A stretch of 47,270 nucleotides of DNA, taken from positions 103,474-150,743 of the forward strand of contig JBBSXD010000001.1 of assembly GCA_038045965.1 (NCBI GenBank), read 5' to 3'. A model generated the notes under the pieces. The model was not told where the DNA came from, ran no database searches, and worked only from the letters and a program-made list of their open reading frames with translations. Positions 5,527 to 15,032 of this stretch are shown here, in pieces (the first letter of the stretch is position 1; every line of letters starts with the position of its first letter). Source of the DNA: Nanobdellota archaeon. GTDB taxonomy: Archaea > Nanobdellota > Nanobdellia > Pacearchaeales > GW2011-AR1. A program made the position numbers and the translations under genes.

Positions 5527-5841
5527 TTATGATATTTCAATACTGTCTTGTGAAAAACCAAGTTTAATTAAAGTTTCTTTAGCTTTATTTAAATGGTCTC
5601 CTTGCAGTTCCACTTTATTTTCTCTGGTTGTTCCTCCACATGCTAGCGCATGTTTAAGATCTCTTGCTATAGCTTTCAAATCCACACCTTGAAACCCAGA
5701 GATTACAGTAATAAACTTTCCGAATTTTTTTTTCTCAGTAGTTATTTGTATTCTTTGTTCAGTTTTAGCAATTTCTTCACAGACACAAGCTTGTAAAGGC
5801 AATCCACATTTTGGACATATATCCATATTATTTATTTTCAA
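5527..5841 (-). CDS. sui1: Translation initiation factor aIF1 (SUI1)
   Basis: 104 aa. N-terminal 'CPKCGLPLQACVCEE' zinc knuckle and 'GF...DLKAIARDLKHALACGGT...VELQGDH' SUI1 core. Confidence 0.9.
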   Translation of the reverse strand: MKINNMDICPKCGLPLQACVCEEIAKTEQRIQITTEKKKFGKFITVISGFQGVDLKAIARDLKHALACGGTTRENKVELQGDHLNKAKETLIKLGFSQDSIEIS

Positions 5842-6028
5842 CTGATTTGTTTAATCTGTTGAAAGTTAGTAATCTAGCAATAGTTCTTTTAATTTCTTTT
5901 ATTTTAATTTTCCCACCTTTTGCTACATTTATTTTTTCTTTTATTAATTCCATTCCTAATTCTTTAATTCTCTCCAGTCTTTCATTATTAGACATTTTTT
6001 TTATATCTTGATTTTTAATTATTGCCAT
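5828..6028 (-). CDS. rpl29: 50S ribosomal protein uL29
   Basis: 66 aa helical hairpin protein ('IKKMSNNERLERIKELGMELIKEK...IKEIKRTIARLLT'). Follows uS3 as in the canonical operon. Confidence 0.8.
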   Translation of the reverse strand: MAIIKNQDIKKMSNNERLERIKELGMELIKEKINVAKGGKIKIKEIKRTIARLLTFNRLNKSVENK

Positions 6029-6743
6029 TTTTTATATCTTCACTAATTTCTTTGTCTTTATTATTCTTTTTATTTTTTCCTTTTTTAACAATTTCTTTTT
6101 TTTCTTCAATATCATTGTTTAAAATAACCAAACTAATTTTCTTTCTTACTTCATCATCTATTATTATTCTATCATACAATCTAGCATCAGGAGGCATTAT
6201 AGCTACTTTTATACCAATTATCCCTGTTTTAGTTAATGCTGTTGATTGAGCTCTCTCAACTTCATTTGAAGAATCACCAGCTTTCTTTAAATATCCCTCT
6301 GCAAATCTCCAGCTTTTTGCTCTTTCACTTGGTAATTTTCCAGATAATCTTAATTCACATCCTAAAGCTCCAGCTTTAATTATTTCTTGTAATTTCCTAT
6401 AAGCAATAACTTTAAATTTAAGATTACCCATTCTTTCTAAAGCTAAAGCAATTTCATCAGCTACTCCTTGAGCATCTAACAATGGATTTTTAATTTCACT
6501 GATTTCTATATGGGGATTTTCTAATCCAAATTTCTTTTTTAGGAAATCTGTTAATTGTTGAATTTGTTCTCCTTTTCTTCCTATAACTAATCCAGGTTTA
6601 CTTGTACTTATTATTATTTTTTCTCCAACTGGTGTATATTCAATATTTAGATTACTAATTTTACCTTTGCCAAGCTGCCTCTTTATATATTCTTTAATTC
6701 CATATTCTTCTTTCTTTAATTTTATAAATTTTCTTTCTTCCAT
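6015..6743 (-). CDS. rps3: 30S ribosomal protein uS3
   Basis: 242 aa. KH-domain motif 'PGLVIGRKGEQIQQL' and a C-terminal uS3 domain ('GCELRLSGKLPSERAKSWRFAEGYLKK'). Has a Lys-rich C-terminal tail. Confidence 0.9.
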   Translation of the reverse strand: MEERKFIKLKKEEYGIKEYIKRQLGKGKISNLNIEYTPVGEKIIISTSKPGLVIGRKGEQIQQLTDFLKKKFGLENPHIEISEIKNPLLDAQGVADEIALALERMGNLKFKVIAYRKLQEIIKAGALGCELRLSGKLPSERAKSWRFAEGYLKKAGDSSNEVERAQSTALTKTGIIGIKVAIMPPDARLYDRIIIDDEVRKKISLVILNNDIEEKKEIVKKGKNKKNNKDKEISEDIKNGNN

Positions 6744-6744
6744 T

Positions 6745-6885
6745 TTTTCATTTCTTCCATTTTTTTATTTTCTCCCGTTAAAAAATGGGAGTTTGAAAAT
6801 CTCAATTTTCATTTCTTCCATTTTTTTATTTTCTCCCGTTAAAAAATGGGAGTTTGAAAATCTCAATTTTCATTTCTTCCATTTT
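6745..6885. repeat. Perfect 61-bp tandem repeat, about 2.3 copies, between uS5 stop and uS3 start
   Basis: Units 6746-6806 and 6807-6867 are identical by base-by-base comparison, with a partial third unit at 6868-6885. Each full unit carries a CTCCC-N10-GGGAG inverted repeat (e.g. 6772-6791). On the minus strand each carries an identical 18-codon mini-ORF, MEEMKIEIFKLPFFNGRK, at 6826-6882 and 6765-6821. The mini-ORF first codons mimic the uS3 start (ATGGAAGAAA...). Confidence 0.9.
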
Positions 6886-8083: not shown

Positions 8084-8542
8084 TTAAATTTTTATTTTAG
8101 TATTTTCTTTAATCCCTTTTTTATTAGTTTCTAGTTTAATGCCTAAACTTTTAAGATATTCCTTCATATTAGACTTACTTTTAAATTCTCTCATCCTTAT
8201 TTTATTTCTAAGTTTTTTATACAATTCTCTTTCAATTAAACTCATATTTTTTAAGCTCATTAAATAGCCTCTTAATTTTCTTGTTATTTTAACATAATTT
8301 TGTTTTCTTCTATTTATTTTCATTTTAATTTTTCCAGGACCTCTTCTATATTTTCTTTTAACTATTTTTCTTCTTCCTTTTATATCTTTTATTTTTATTA
8401 TTCCTTCACTATAAAGTTGTTTTATATCCTGTCTGGTTATAGCTTCTTTTATTTCTTTCAAATTTTCATTCTTGAATATTATTCTACCCTTACCAACTCT
8501 TAAAACCTTCGCTGCCAATGCTTTTTTCTTATTTAAATTCAT
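8084..8542 (-). CDS. rpl19e: 50S ribosomal protein eL19
   Basis: 152 aa. 'KKALAAKVLRVGKGRI', 'RRGPGKIKMK..RRKQNYVKITRKLR' are typical of L19e. Confidence 0.9.
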   Translation of the reverse strand: MNLNKKKALAAKVLRVGKGRIIFKNENLKEIKEAITRQDIKQLYSEGIIKIKDIKGRRKIVKRKYRRGPGKIKMKINRRKQNYVKITRKLRGYLMSLKNMSLIERELYKKLRNKIRMREFKSKSNMKEYLKSLGIKLETNKKGIKENTKIKI

Positions 8543-8544
8543 TT

Positions 8545-9135
8545 TTATTTCTCCTCAATTTTAGCTTCTTTAATTTTTTTCTCATCTTCATTCAATACTT
8601 CTTCATTAGCATTTTTATTTTCCACTTTCTTCTCTAATTTTGTATGATCTTTATCTTTTTCCTCTAACTTATTTTTTTCTTCTTTCTCTTTAGATTTTTT
8701 ATCTCTATTCATCTTCTCAACAATTCTTCTTTCTTTACTTTTTTTAGATAATTTCATTTTTTCTTCCAAATTTCTTAAAAAATTTTCAGGATTAAACTTA
8801 TAAATATTTATTTTTTGTTTAATTACTTCTTCAGCTATAATTTTCTTGTTTTTATTACCTATCTTTGCAATAATTCCTATATTATCTTTTCCAATTTTTT
8901 TTAGGTCTTTTAAATTATAAACCATTACAACATTCTTTCCATTTAACAAATTTCTAGTAGAACTTTGATTTTTAAAACCAATTTTAACTTTTCTTAATCT
9001 TCCAGCTCTATTAAGTCTAATTTTATTATCCCCCCCGCCTGGTCTTCTATATTTTAATTTTTTCTTTCTTCTTAATCCCAGTTTAGAATAATTATGTGCA
9101 CTTACTTGTCTGAAAATTGGTTTTAGTTTTGTCAT
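8545..9135 (-). CDS. rpl32e: 50S ribosomal protein eL32 with long K/E-rich C-terminal extension
   Basis: 196 aa. The N-terminal ~120 aa match L32e ('YRRPGGGDNKIRLNRAGRLRKVKIGFKNQSSTRNLLNGK'). The last ~70 aa are Lys/Glu-rich low complexity. Confidence 0.85.
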   Translation of the reverse strand: MTKLKPIFRQVSAHNYSKLGLRRKKKLKYRRPGGGDNKIRLNRAGRLRKVKIGFKNQSSTRNLLNGKNVVMVYNLKDLKKIGKDNIGIIAKIGNKNKKIIAEEVIKQKINIYKFNPENFLRNLEEKMKLSKKSKERRIVEKMNRDKKSKEKEEKNKLEEKDKDHTKLEKKVENKNANEEVLNEDEKKIKEAKIEEK

Positions 9136-9440
9136 TTTGAATAAATTCTAGTAATTTTTTTAATAATCTTTTTTAAAAAATTAGTATTTTTGCTTATCAT
9201 TGTAACAAAAGGATTATCTTCAAAATAGATAAAATCATCTTGGTTTATTTTATAGGTTCTGTAATTAGCATATGTTTCATTTATCTCTATAGTTGATATA
9301 TTCTTTTCATTTAATTTTACTAAGGTTTCTCTTCTACCTCTATTTAAAATAATATCCCCTAATCTAATAAGTGATAATTCTACTATTTTATTTTTTGGTA
9401 ATTCAAATTCTAATCCCAATCCAAATTTTCTCTCTAACAT
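9132..9440 (-). CDS. Hypothetical protein embedded in the ribosomal operon (between uL6 and eL32)
   Basis: 102-aa ORF. Its start overlaps the uL6 stop (TAATG at 9440) and its stop overlaps the eL32 start (ATGA at 9132-9135). The sequence is not low complexity. I recognise no family. Confidence 0.5.
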   Translation of the reverse strand: MLERKFGLGLEFELPKNKIVELSLIRLGDIILNRGRRETLVKLNEKNISTIEINETYANYRTYKINQDDFIYFEDNPFVTMISKNTNFLKKIIKKITRIYSK

Positions 9441-10006
9441 TATAAATAAGTCCTCCCAGGTTTTTCGATAATAAAAATTCCATCCTGGTAAATTCTTCTA
9501 TCAAAATTTTTTACTTTAGAACCTTTTTCTATACTAGATGCAACTATTCCAGCTTTTTCTATATCATAGCTGCTTACTATAACATCTTCTCCATTAATCT
9601 TAATATCAACATTATCTATTATTTTTATTATTCTATCTTTTTTCTCTCCCAGGAAATTTTTAATTACAAACTCTCTTTTATCTTTGTTGAAAACTACGTT
9701 CATCGGAAAATGAACATTTGACACCCTCAATTTATAATTAAACCCTTCTGTTAGACCTTTAATCATATTTTTTATATGGGCAATATAGGTAAAAAATATT
9801 TTTTTTTCTTTTTTTCTTTTAGTCTTGGAGCTTAAAACTATTTTATTTTCTTTAATCTTAATATCTATCAAATGAATAAAGCTTCTAGATATCTTTTTAT
9901 CATTGTGTTTAAATGTAAAACTCTTATCTTCTATAATGGTTTCTATGCCTTCAGGAATATCAATTTCTTGATATAATCCAATTTTATTCTTTTCATTATT
10001 ATCCAT
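9440..10006 (-). CDS. rpl6: 50S ribosomal protein uL6
   Basis: Two-domain uL6 pattern ('IAHIKNMIKGLTEGFNYKLRVSNVHFPMNV', 'EKAGIVASSIEK...DRRIYQDGIFI'). I place the start at ATG 10006 (MDNNEK...), which forms TAATG with the uS8 stop, not at the track's 10030. Confidence 0.85.
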   Translation of the reverse strand: MDNNEKNKIGLYQEIDIPEGIETIIEDKSFTFKHNDKKISRSFIHLIDIKIKENKIVLSSKTKRKKEKKIFFTYIAHIKNMIKGLTEGFNYKLRVSNVHFPMNVVFNKDKREFVIKNFLGEKKDRIIKIIDNVDIKINGEDVIVSSYDIEKAGIVASSIEKGSKVKNFDRRIYQDGIFIIEKPGRTYL

Positions 10007-10377
10007 TAGTACATATATGCAACTAAGCATCCTCCTAAACTTTCCTTTTCAGCTTTTTTATGATCCATCAACCCTTGATTTGTACTAACAATAATAAACC
10101 CAAAATTTTTAGCAGGTAAATATCTTCTAACATAATAATCAATTTTTTTTACAGGAACAGTATATCTTGGTTTAATAGCCATAATATAGTTCAAATCTTT
10201 TATTTCTACAATTAATTTTGTATTTTGAATCTCATAATCTAATAATCCATTTTCTTTAGCAAAATCCAAAATATGTTTTAATAATTTTGAGTATTTATTT
10301 ATAATTACATTTGTTTTTCTTGCTTTCTTAGCATTCATTATTTGGTTAAGTGCATCAGCAACTGTATCTTGACTCAT
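10006..10377 (-). CDS. rps8: 30S ribosomal protein uS8
   Basis: 123 aa. 'DTVADALNQIMNAKKARK' N-terminus and 'IIVSTNQGLMDHKKAEKESLGG' C-terminus. Confidence 0.9.
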   Translation of the reverse strand: MSQDTVADALNQIMNAKKARKTNVIINKYSKLLKHILDFAKENGLLDYEIQNTKLIVEIKDLNYIMAIKPRYTVPVKKIDYYVRRYLPAKNFGFIIVSTNQGLMDHKKAEKESLGGCLVAYMY

Positions 10378-12609: not shown

Positions 12610-12950
12610 TTTTTTACCTCTAATTTATTTATTTTATTTTCATCATTAACTTTTCCAATTAAAATAAAATGAATAATCTTAGAAATAGGTCTGCATTCTT
12701 TAATTTCTACATAATCACCTATCTGAATATTATTGCTGATACAGTCAGGTAATCTAGCATGTAATTTAGTTTTTCTTTTAGCATATCTTTCATACTTCTT
12801 TACATAAATAGTTCTCTCGAATTCTATTACAACCCTCTTCGGAAATTTTTTTATGACATTTCCTTTAAAAGTTCTACCTCTTAAACTGATATTTCCATGA
12901 GTAGGGCATGCAAAATCTTTACATTCTATATTTTTTTCTTTATTTTTCAT
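12606..12950 (-). CDS. rps17: 30S ribosomal protein uS17
   Basis: 114 aa. 'CPTHGNISLRGRTFKGNVIK', 'YERYAKRKTKLHA', 'GDYVEIKECRPISK' uS17 motifs. Its start overlaps the uL22 stop directly, so no uS3/uL29 lies between. Confidence 0.9.
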   Translation of the reverse strand: MKNKEKNIECKDFACPTHGNISLRGRTFKGNVIKKFPKRVVIEFERTIYVKKYERYAKRKTKLHARLPDCISNNIQIGDYVEIKECRPISKIIHFILIGKVNDENKINKLEVKK

Positions 12951-13920: not shown

Positions 13921-14655
13921 TTATATTTTTTTCCTCCCAGTTTTTCTAGGTCTAATATGTCCTACTTTCGCACCTGGAGGAGCATTTCTCTTAGCAATTT
14001 TGCTTTTAATTCTTTTCCCTCTTCCACTACCAAATGGATGATCTACTGCATTGGATTTAACTGCGCTAATTCTGTGCCATTTTCTGCCTACAGCCTTCAT
14101 CATATGAAAATGTTTACCTGCTTTTACTAAAGGTTTTATTAATCTTCCATCTCCAGCAATTACCCCAATAACAGCTCTGCAGTTTTCATTTAATTTAATC
14201 TTTCTTTTTTTAATTTGTAACTCAATAACATTATTATCATTAGAACTAATTATTGCAGAATTTCCTCCTGTTCTGATTAGCTTACCACCTTTTCCAGGAA
14301 CTAATTCTACATTGAAAACTTTTGTTCCAACAGCTATATCCTTAAGCATTAAAATATCTCCACTCTGATTATTAACATTCTCAGGTCTTTTTCCAATATA
14401 AATTTCTTGACCCTCATAAATTCCATTTGCTGCAGGAATTATAAATTTAATTTCTTTATTTTCTAGAGAAAAATTTATCATTTGAATTTCAGCAAGCGGA
14501 GAGGTATGCCCACTAGAATTAAATAATTTAATTACTTTAGCAGCTCCATTAACATTAAGATGAGGATAAGTTATTTTATATCTATAAGCTCTTGGTCTGA
14601 CTCTAAAAGTCATACTTCCTTTTCCTCTAGCTTGTTGTGTTGTTCTTTTTCCCAT
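13921..14655 (-). CDS. rpl2: 50S ribosomal protein uL2
   Basis: 244 aa. 'GHTSPLAEI', 'VELVPGKGGKLIRTGGNSA', 'VDHPFGSGRGK', 'PGAKVGHI' uL2 motifs. Confidence 0.95.
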   Translation of the reverse strand: MGKRTTQQARGKGSMTFRVRPRAYRYKITYPHLNVNGAAKVIKLFNSSGHTSPLAEIQMINFSLENKEIKFIIPAANGIYEGQEIYIGKRPENVNNQSGDILMLKDIAVGTKVFNVELVPGKGGKLIRTGGNSAIISSNDNNVIELQIKKRKIKLNENCRAVIGVIAGDGRLIKPLVKAGKHFHMMKAVGRKWHRISAVKSNAVDHPFGSGRGKRIKSKIAKRNAPPGAKVGHIRPRKTGRKKI

Positions 14656-15032
14656 TATATTGAAGTTTCTCTTATGAAACCGGATTTATTTATAATTTCC
14701 ATTTCTCTTTTTCCATTTTCAGATTCAGTTGAATATCTATAAACTTCAGGATTTCTAATAACTAAATTTTCATTATAAACTCTTATATTATCTTGATGAA
14801 TTTTATATTCTACAATTGACCCATCCCAATCATATTCAATGAATCTATGTAATTCGTCCTCTAATCCTCTATAAACTACCCATTTAAAACTATTCTCATT
14901 TAGTAATTTAGCTCTAACTAATTTATTCTCTCTGTTAGATAAATATGAAGGAACATTTTTTCTACTATTAGGAATATCTTTGCTTAATAAATTAACTTTC
15001 CATAATTTTTTTCTTAAGCTTTTTTTTATCAT
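14655..15032 (-). CDS. Hypothetical protein embedded in the ribosomal operon (between uL23 and uL2)
   Basis: 125-aa ORF joined by TAATG overlaps at both ends (15030-15034 with the uL23 stop, 14653-14657 with the uL2 start). Basic N-terminal third, then a beta-rich region ('WVVYRGLEDELHRFIEYDWDGSIVEYKIH'). I recognise no family. Confidence 0.5.
   Translation of the reverse strand: MIKKSLRKKLWKVNLLSKDIPNSRKNVPSYLSNRENKLVRAKLLNENSFKWVVYRGLEDELHRFIEYDWDGSIVEYKIHQDNIRVYNENLVIRNPEVYRYSTESENGKREMEIINKSGFIRETSI

Follow-up and report, generated by a model that had tools for sequence, protein, structure and literature searches.

Few features of prokaryotic genomes are as conserved as the order of their ribosomal-protein genes, which serves as a routine fixed framework for phylogeny and binning. 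The other genes that reside in archaeal ribosomal-protein superoperons, such as those for aIF1/SUI1, Rpp29, SecY, Adk and Cmk, are to our knowledge ancient, archaea-universal, fixed in position and single-copy. Termination and reinitiation at an overlapping stop and start (ATGA or TAATG), aided by an upstream Shine-Dalgarno site, constitute translational coupling. Extra genes standing between genes that are adjacent in related genomes are known from phages as morons, which typically bring a promoter and a terminator of their own and differ in base composition. New operon pairs of an ORFan and a native gene probably arise by insertion, through a mechanism that is unclear, and ORFans inserted in operons have been proposed to gain expression from the native promoter (Price, Arkin & Alm 2006, PMC1480536). 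The subject of this analysis is ORF102, an open reading frame (ORF) of 102 codons between the genes for ribosomal proteins uL6 and eL32 in a stretch of 47,270 nucleotides from a Nanobdellota archaeon (the window; assembly GCA_038045965.1, contig JBBSXD010000001.1, positions 103,474 to 150,743 of the forward strand). ORF102 is probably a real passenger gene, a member of a fast-evolving family that sits in the junctions, or seams, between co-translated essential genes of one taxonomic family of small-genome, DPANN-type archaea.

The ORF and its two overlaps, described from the letters alone in an earlier note on this DNA, are present as reported, and Pfam identifies both flanking genes. The features of the locus, in window coordinates, are the following:

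9132 to 9440, minus strand: ORF102 (P0001), 102 amino acids, probable passenger gene of a new small-protein family (alignments A4/A5; homologue searches)
9440 to 10030, minus strand: uL6, upstream neighbour (Pfam PF00347 Ribosomal_L6, E 8e-12)
8545 to 9135, minus strand: eL32, downstream neighbour, with a long Lys/Glu-rich C-terminal extension (Pfam PF01655 Ribosomal_L32e, E 7e-13)
9438 to 9442, minus strand: TAATG, where the uL6 stop TAA (9442-9440) shares one base with the ORF102 ATG (9440-9438) (sequence)
9132 to 9135, minus strand: ATGA, where the ORF102 stop TGA (9134-9132) overlaps the eL32 ATG (9135-9133) (sequence)
9452 to 9457, minus strand: GGGAGG, Shine-Dalgarno-like, in the last codons of uL6 (K-P-G-R), 12-17 nt upstream of the ORF102 start
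9192 to 9386, minus strand: predicted seven-stranded beta domain, ORF102 codons 19-83, with motifs GD[IV][IL], E-[LTV]-[IV], T and Y (AlphaFold2 (AF2) model, alignment A5)
9138 to 9182, minus strand: predicted C-terminal helix, ORF102 codons 87-101 (AF2 model, alignment A5)

This placement is such that translation of ORF102 would go together with that of uL6 and eL32, in agreement with the coupling that the earlier note proposed. No ORF of 40 amino acids or more overlaps it on the plus strand, and neither an Rfam match nor a terminator-like site occurs within 8400-10100. Promoter-like sites near ORF102 are at chance level by a consensus that is bacterial only, the host being archaeal. Codon usage is native: the codon adaptation index (CAI) of 0.74 lies inside the ribosomal-protein range of 0.65-0.81, GC content at third codon positions (GC3) is 0.136, and GC, GC3 and CAI are indistinguishable from those of the adjoining genes. 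The encoded protein is basic, with an isoelectric point (pI) of 9.6.

The uL6 region was compared in 44 species of the same genus and in five genomes from other families of the order, and the gap between the uL6 stop and the eL32 start was measured (labels G, L and P denote genomes, loci and proteins, A4, A5 and A6 are alignments, and G000 is the window's genome). The expectation that no gene stands between uL6 and eL32 holds for most congeners, as 28 of the 44 have the two genes directly adjoining (-7 to +8 nt); another five have a spacer of 51-126 nt that contains no long ORF, and 11, the window genome included, have a tightly packed ORF of 73-126 amino acids. In the other families the genes abut in four of the five genomes, and the fifth has a 64-nt spacer. 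The three congeners closest by uL6 identity (G110, G425 and G416) have no ORF102, and the flanking genes are directly adjacent in close relatives, as expected of a passenger. The seam is occupied by the ORF102 family in six of the 44 congeners and by an unrelated family (A6) in three: G012 (L016:2060-2422:+), G118 (L067:628-990:+) and G428 (L068:661-1029:+). The A6 ORFs encode 121-123 amino acids of helical-looking sequence at 27-30% mutual identity and have no Pfam match. Yet another orphan ORF fills the seam of G008 (L010:1164-1496:-), and none of these four is related to the ORF102 family by hidden Markov model (HMM) or hhalign. Two congeners, G425 (L063:678-728) and G416 (L064:644-694), share a conserved 51-nt spacer with a 16-codon mini-ORF ending in ATGA at the eL32 start, which could be what is left of a deleted cassette.

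ORF102 gives only noise-level matches in Pfam and NCBIfam. A HMMER search of 1.84e9 representative proteins returned two true relatives (P0002, E 7.5e-9; P0003, E 6e-8), and profile searches of 5.8e9 clusters added P0006-P0011, bringing the total to about nine proteins, all unnamed. The check for homologues and synteny that the earlier note had suggested thus found metagenome relatives at 37-45% identity and more distant ones in related genomes, and because of these homologues ORF102 is, as far as sequence can tell, more than a chance open frame. No consistent match to the family was found in Pfam, NCBIfam, PADLOC, PHROGs or PDB sequences: PDB sequences gave nothing below E 0.4, and each library family matched in PADLOC and PHROGs (defence, phage) was found by one member only. 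Scores in the ESM Atlas were at noise level, and no related locus came up when collections of genome, metagenome and viral contigs were scanned.

A profile built from the first five homologues scored the uL6/eL32 seam ORFs of G424, G423 and G019 at 18.8, 17.0 and 12.4 bits, against a control maximum of 9.5 bits over 550 shuffled sequences and 146 window ORFs, and iteration brought the seam ORFs of G277 and G023 into the family. Whole genomes, not operons alone, were then searched with the growing profile, and scores were taken before each sequence joined it; the genomes searched are samples of their groups. The family so assembled has about 25 members, small soluble proteins of roughly 80-120 amino acids. 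Within its own taxonomic family it occurs in 20 of the 401 genomes searched, and 162 near-complete genomes that represent 69 further families of the phylum gave 0; this narrow range, together with the absence of relatives in curated libraries, is what a passenger should have. Almost all genome-wide matches lie in seams of the ribosomal-protein superoperons, and at least ten seams are occupied: uL6/eL32, uL30/uL15, uL3/uL4, uS17/uL14, uL24/eS4, uL5/uS14, uS8/uL6, uL22/uS3, uS3/uL29 and Rrp41/Rrp42. Members found away from the uL6/eL32 seam scored 20-37 bits before they joined the profile and include the following:

G159 and G275, at uL30/uL15: 37 and 34 bits
G019, at uL30/uL15: 27 bits
G001, at uL30/uL15: about 24 bits
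G084, at Rrp41/Rrp42 (exosome): 25.5 bits
G456, at uL24/eS4: 24 bits
G118, at uL5/uS14: about 24 bits
G088 and G137, at uL3/uL4: about 24 bits each
G538, at uL22/uS3: about 24 bits
G007, at uS3/uL29: 23.6 bits
G479, at uS17/uL14, with ATGA overlaps at both ends: 23 bits
G517, at uS8/uL6: 21 bits

The uL30/uL15 seam holds copies in G019, G007, G424, G275, G159 and G001, plus a frameshifted one in G006 (L125:1379-1668), which is split into two overlapping frames of 28.5 and 23.4 bits and is probably decaying. Tandem arrays of two or three small ORFs stand between uL30 and uL15 in G007 (L107:839-1753), G424 (L108:1194-1830) and G001 (L122:377-1178); each contains at least one clear member, and the remaining ORFs score 6-12 bits yet have an E-A-G-[LI]-type tail. 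The exosome operon of G084 (L089:1465-2811) reads Rrp4, a 97-residue orphan, Rrp41, a member of 114-122 residues, and Rrp42, so seam-filling is not confined to ribosomal-protein operons. In most members the start and stop fall within -4 to +2 nt of the adjoining genes. The noise ceiling over the whole G000 genome is 11.7 bits with A4; with A5 it is 9.9 bits, one immunoglobulin (Ig)-repeat surface protein excepted (contig C16, 19.5-20.7 bits), which is unrelated and was treated as a false positive. The C-terminal tail that members share contributes part of the signal. When it is left out of the HMM, nine held-out members continue to score 18-33 bits, and four others (G529, G503, G318 and G165), counted as doubtful, fall to noise. 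In G530 a 188-residue ORF with two LAGLIDADG-like motifs (L093:484-1047:+), likely a homing endonuclease, lies beside a weak and doubtful family match of 18 bits.

The tail appears to have two uses. Its usual form, shared by most members, is Y-x-x-[YF]-x-x-x-L-x-E-A-G-L(W)-stop, and in most members other than ORF102 the underlying DNA reads ..G GAG GCx GGx.., so that a GGAGG lies 8-14 nt ahead of the following gene's start; 15 of 25 members have GGAG or GAGG within their last 24 nt. The choice of glutamate codon in these AT-rich genes follows the same pattern, with GAA:GAG at 193:44 in the ORF bodies versus 8:16 in the last eight codons (Fisher p 1.8e-6, a value somewhat optimistic as the copies are related). 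In congeners without an insert, a conserved GGGAGG within the final uL6 codons (K-P-G-R) precedes eL32, and in the window this same signal, at 9452-9457, stands ahead of ORF102. The C-terminal end of ORF102 has diverged from the family tail into the basic KKIIKKITRIYSK, which is the basic C-terminus that the earlier note remarked on and which contains no GGAGG; the 25 nt preceding the eL32 start, within the 3′ end of ORF102, have no Shine-Dalgarno-like site. Without a GGAGG tail in ORF102, eL32 would rely on the ATGA overlap alone.

A mechanism for the tolerance of such an insertion can be proposed from these borders. The cassette carries neither a terminator nor spacing of its own, its start overlapping the uL6 stop and its stop the eL32 start. 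The overlaps, the GGGAGG embedded in uL6 and the lack of a terminator suggest that it is expressed from the signals of the host operon. ORF102 would be translated from the operon mRNA by way of the GGGAGG in the last codons of uL6, and would hand terminating ribosomes to eL32 through the ATGA overlap. In the family at large the GGAGG of the tail, which is seen at the codon level, would restore the ribosome-binding signal that the cassette displaced, and a cassette may be tolerated because it rebuilds coupling signals at both of its new borders. The protein itself would be a dispensable accessory that does not bind rRNA and that is gained, lost and moved between seams.

Structure prediction gave a coherent fold. 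AF2 run on five sequences reached a predicted local distance difference test score (pLDDT) of 58; with the 19-sequence alignment A5 it reached 80.4, with a predicted template modelling score (pTM) of 0.72 and all five models at pLDDT 77-80, and this gain on adding divergent members supports their homology. The model consists of seven beta strands (residues 19-83) followed by a C-terminal helix (87-101), through which, at a guess, the protein may dock onto other proteins. Foldseek against the PDB gave template modelling (TM) scores of at most 0.34, VIA-align against 48,161 PDB representatives a best Z of 4.3, and the Foldseek top 1000, re-examined, a Z of at most 4.1; in a viral structure library no match exceeded TM 0.45 or fell below E 0.06. 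The predicted model fits no clear match in solved structures, and no novelty is claimed for the fold. The profile and structure comparisons with Rpp29 and ribosomal proteins that the earlier note recommended brought out neither in the profiles nor among the fold matches listed, with hhalign probabilities below 1% to the ribosomal proteins of the operon and the PDB values just given. PH-like, profilin and PC4/Pur-alpha folds were set aside with only Z 3-4 or TM below 0.35. An AbrB/MazE-like swapped hairpin, suspected from the pattern [IL]PK...L..GD.[IV], was dropped as no member matches Pfam even at E ≤ 10, and a PD-(D/E)xK nuclease likewise, a single member having a weak MmcB-like match (E 0.16) and only one acidic residue being invariant.

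In long-range comparisons the ORF evolves at about twice the pace of the flanking genes (20-30% versus 50-60% identity). The ratio of nonsynonymous to synonymous substitution rates (dN/dS), another check that the earlier note had called for, could be taken from the only close pair with DNA, G019-G424 (96 codons). The ORF of this pair has dN 0.21 and dS 0.56 (bootstrap 0.33-0.91), and the resulting dN/dS of about 0.38 indicates purifying selection on the protein. The concatenated uL6, eL32 and eL19 of the same pair have dN 0.25 and dS 1.57 (bootstrap 1.07-2.73), and third-position identity is 70% in the ORF versus 52% in the flanks. The difference, which comes from a single 96-codon pair, is suggestive of a cassette younger than the genes around it, the pattern that lateral exchange predicts.

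These values bear on the proposal that the ORF is a functionless translated spacer, which maintains uL6-to-eL32 coupling after an insertion and is kept since its imprecise deletion would harm the essential uL6 or eL32. Rapid divergence and a patchy distribution would suit a spacer, as would conservation that is partly at the nucleotide level, in the GGAGG tail, and the short spacers and 16-codon mini-ORF of G425 and G416, which look like decay products. However, the beta domain is conserved independently of the tail, the family alignment yields a confident and consistent AF2 fold, dN/dS in the closest pair is about 0.38, and length has been held at 80-120 amino acids over some 25 copies; a mere spacer is quite unlikely.

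A second alternative is that the family is a lineage-specific ribosome-associated protein that stays in ribosomal operons through working with their products, be it as a new accessory ribosomal protein, in ribosome assembly, or as a dedicated chaperone of basic ribosomal proteins. Ribosomal-protein or exosome operons house nearly all members whose place is confident, coupling at both ends predicts synthesis at about the level of ribosomal proteins, and in the G019-G424 pair the dN of the ORF equals that of the adjoining ribosomal proteins. The mostly acidic charge of the family would suit binding to basic ribosomal proteins, and the window's own copy is basic. Ribosomal proteins, however, are near-universal, single-copy, fixed in position and of conserved basic composition. 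The family is found in few genomes of its taxonomic family, at the uL6/eL32 seam of only six of the 44 congeners and in none of the 162 genomes elsewhere in the phylum, and those closest by uL6 identity have no copy. Its seam varies, its copy number runs from 0 to at least 3, one copy is frameshifted, and unrelated small ORFs (A6; G008) fill the same seam elsewhere. Its median pI is 5.6 and its net charge is unconserved, from -10 to +13, whereas all 19 ribosomal proteins of the operon have a pI of at least 9.5; no PDB ribosomal protein fold match reached Z 5. A ribosome-associated role is unlikely, and ORF102 is very probably not a ribosomal protein. Of the suggestion that it might be a lineage-specific ribosomal protein, the first half therefore stands, as the gene is genuine and lineage-specific, and the second does not, given the patchy occurrence, the many seams, the tandem and frameshifted copies and the mostly acidic members.

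The earlier note had also seen a faint resemblance to the RNase P protein Rpp29 and raised the idea that ORF102 is a relocated, highly divergent copy of it. Rpp29, which the note had missed at its usual site after SUI1, is undetected in this genome: a six-frame search of the whole genome with the Pfam Rpp29 model, which detected the protein in control archaea, gave no match, although a full-length RNase P RNA is present (G000, contig C7:11044-11319, L050; 61 bits over the full model, the Rfam gathering score being 84). The protein encoded by ORF102 is, moreover, small and beta-rich, and gives weak partial alignments (Z 3-4) to small beta-barrels (Tudor, EF-P domain I). The resemblance itself did not survive comparison, as PF01868 (RNase_P-MRP_p29) fails to match ORF102 even at E ≤ 10 and hhalign of A5 against an alignment of six same-order Rpp29 domains gives a probability of 0.06%. 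No Rpp29 or Sm structure is among the fold matches listed, an absence from the list that is compatible with an Sm-like fold. Three other families of the order have a detectable Rpp29, located in its canonical operon region, and it is undetected in 24 of 24 congeners, with or without the ORF, most of them without; since it is undetectable there regardless of the ORF, ORF102 cannot be the missing Rpp29, whose absence is, judged by these searches, a clade-wide trait unrelated to the patchy ORF102. Pop5 is undetected in G000 and Rpp30 (18 bits) and Rpp21 (15 bits) are weak, leaving none of the four RNase P proteins confidently detectable, which argues that loss or divergence has affected them generally. 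An essential single-copy subunit would be expected once wherever the RNase P RNA is kept, at the canonical position before uS17, and not as a multi-copy, seam-shifting gene missing from most of the clade; the family occurs in 20 of 401 genomes, in 0 to at least 3 copies. The Rpp29 identity is close to refuted within the reach of sequence methods, and hardly any likelihood is left to it.

The family tree is star-like, with a supported uL30/uL15 clade drawn from two genera (97/95). A repeat search at the two borders of ORF102 found no junction duplication. The last 27 nt of the ORF match those of uL6 at 17 positions in G000 versus 11.3 in shuffled sequence, and G019 is above its shuffles too, but across the family the mean of 12.8 versus 11.4 shows no excess. 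An origin as a partial duplicate of the uL6 C-terminal domain was rejected when a single-sequence hhalign P of 0.006 disappeared against a 49-sequence uL6 profile (0.3%), and other ribosomal proteins of the operon were rejected as parents with every hhalign probability below 1%. A more specific proposal is that the family is a new kind of mobile, gene-sized cassette with no recombinase of its own, which recombines among the seams of essential coupled operons, is tolerated through a tail that is both protein helix and GGAGG and restores translation of the essential gene behind it, and encodes a protein, made in amounts like those of ribosomal proteins, that acts on translation or RNA processing or at the host-symbiont interface; this is possible but doubtful.

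Several points weigh against the reading of ORF102 as one of a family of passengers that move among seams. Distant members are recognized by weak profile scores (18-37 bits), and the unrelated Ig-repeat protein, at 19.5-20.7 bits, scores inside this range. The four ORFs that fall to noise in the tail-less search (G529, G503, G318 and G165) may have no kinship with the family and have arrived at the same ribosome-binding tail by convergence. The near-exclusive placement in operons for translation and RNA processing could reflect a functional link to those machines. The window's copy has no GGAGG tail and, with a pI of 9.6, is basic, and its role may have shifted, for instance to RNA binding. 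Movement between seams would follow from the distribution of copies; a single origin of the uL6/eL32 copies is not rejected (p-AU 0.26, by the approximately unbiased test, on a star-like tree), and nothing that could serve for transfer, such as a recombinase or flanking repeats, was seen.

Other features of the region were noted in passing. The longest uL6 ORF, from its annotated start, overlaps uS8 by 25 nt (window 10006-10030), and translation probably begins at an in-frame ATG eight codons further on (MDNNEK...). A second orphan ORF, of 125 amino acids (P0012), lies at 14655-15032 on the minus strand between uL23 and uL2; it has no Pfam match and no relationship to the ORF102 family by HMM or hhalign. 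The gene order of the genus places the uS3-uL29-SUI1 block between uS5 and uL30 and not after uL22 (window 5527-6885, 12940-12950), as is likewise seen in G019, G007, G001 and G006; the canonical uL22-uS3-uL29-SUI1 is retained in G538, and uS3-uL29-SUI1-uS17 in G479.

If ORF102 is such a passenger, then in one archaeal lineage the seams of the ribosomal-protein operons are open to small accessory genes, and the presence of one recognizable family in at least ten seams is evidence of movement rather than of separate origins. A tail that doubles as the ribosome-binding site of an essential gene would be a concrete reason why insertion is tolerated. The protein should, by its position, be abundant, and its confidently predicted fold has no known match. 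The analysis also removes a false lead, in that the missing Rpp29 of this clade is not to be sought at the uL6/eL32 seam.

A literature search found no paper describing seam passenger genes, and the closest described systems each share part of the pattern. Like the ORFans in native operons (PMC1480536), ORF102 is taxonomically restricted and without known relatives outside its family, sits in an older operon from whose native promoter it is presumably expressed, and is absent where the flanking genes of relatives abut. It differs from them in that its host is a ribosomal-protein superoperon, among the most conserved of gene orders, in that the insertion is base-exact with overlaps at both ends and one family fills at least ten seams, and in that, in most members, the 3′ end of the cassette carries the ribosome-binding site of the next gene. 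The family resembles phage morons in being small, fast-evolving, dispensable, patchy and placed between conserved neighbours; unlike morons, ORF102 has no terminator-like site, promoter-like sites at chance level (bacterial consensus) and native codon usage, and its host is an essential cellular operon. A looser analogy is with SUI1, Rpp29, SecY, Adk and Cmk, which are also co-transcribed with ribosomal-protein genes without being part of the ribosome, but the ORF102 family does not reach beyond one taxonomic family in these searches, is patchy and seam-shifting, and is sometimes tandem. Termination-reinitiation coupling is matched by the overlaps at both borders of ORF102 and by the GGAGG that most members place 8-14 nt before the next start. 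Unlike in standard coupling, the ribosome-binding site of the family sits in a conserved protein tail (E-A-G-L), so that the signal would travel with the cassette.

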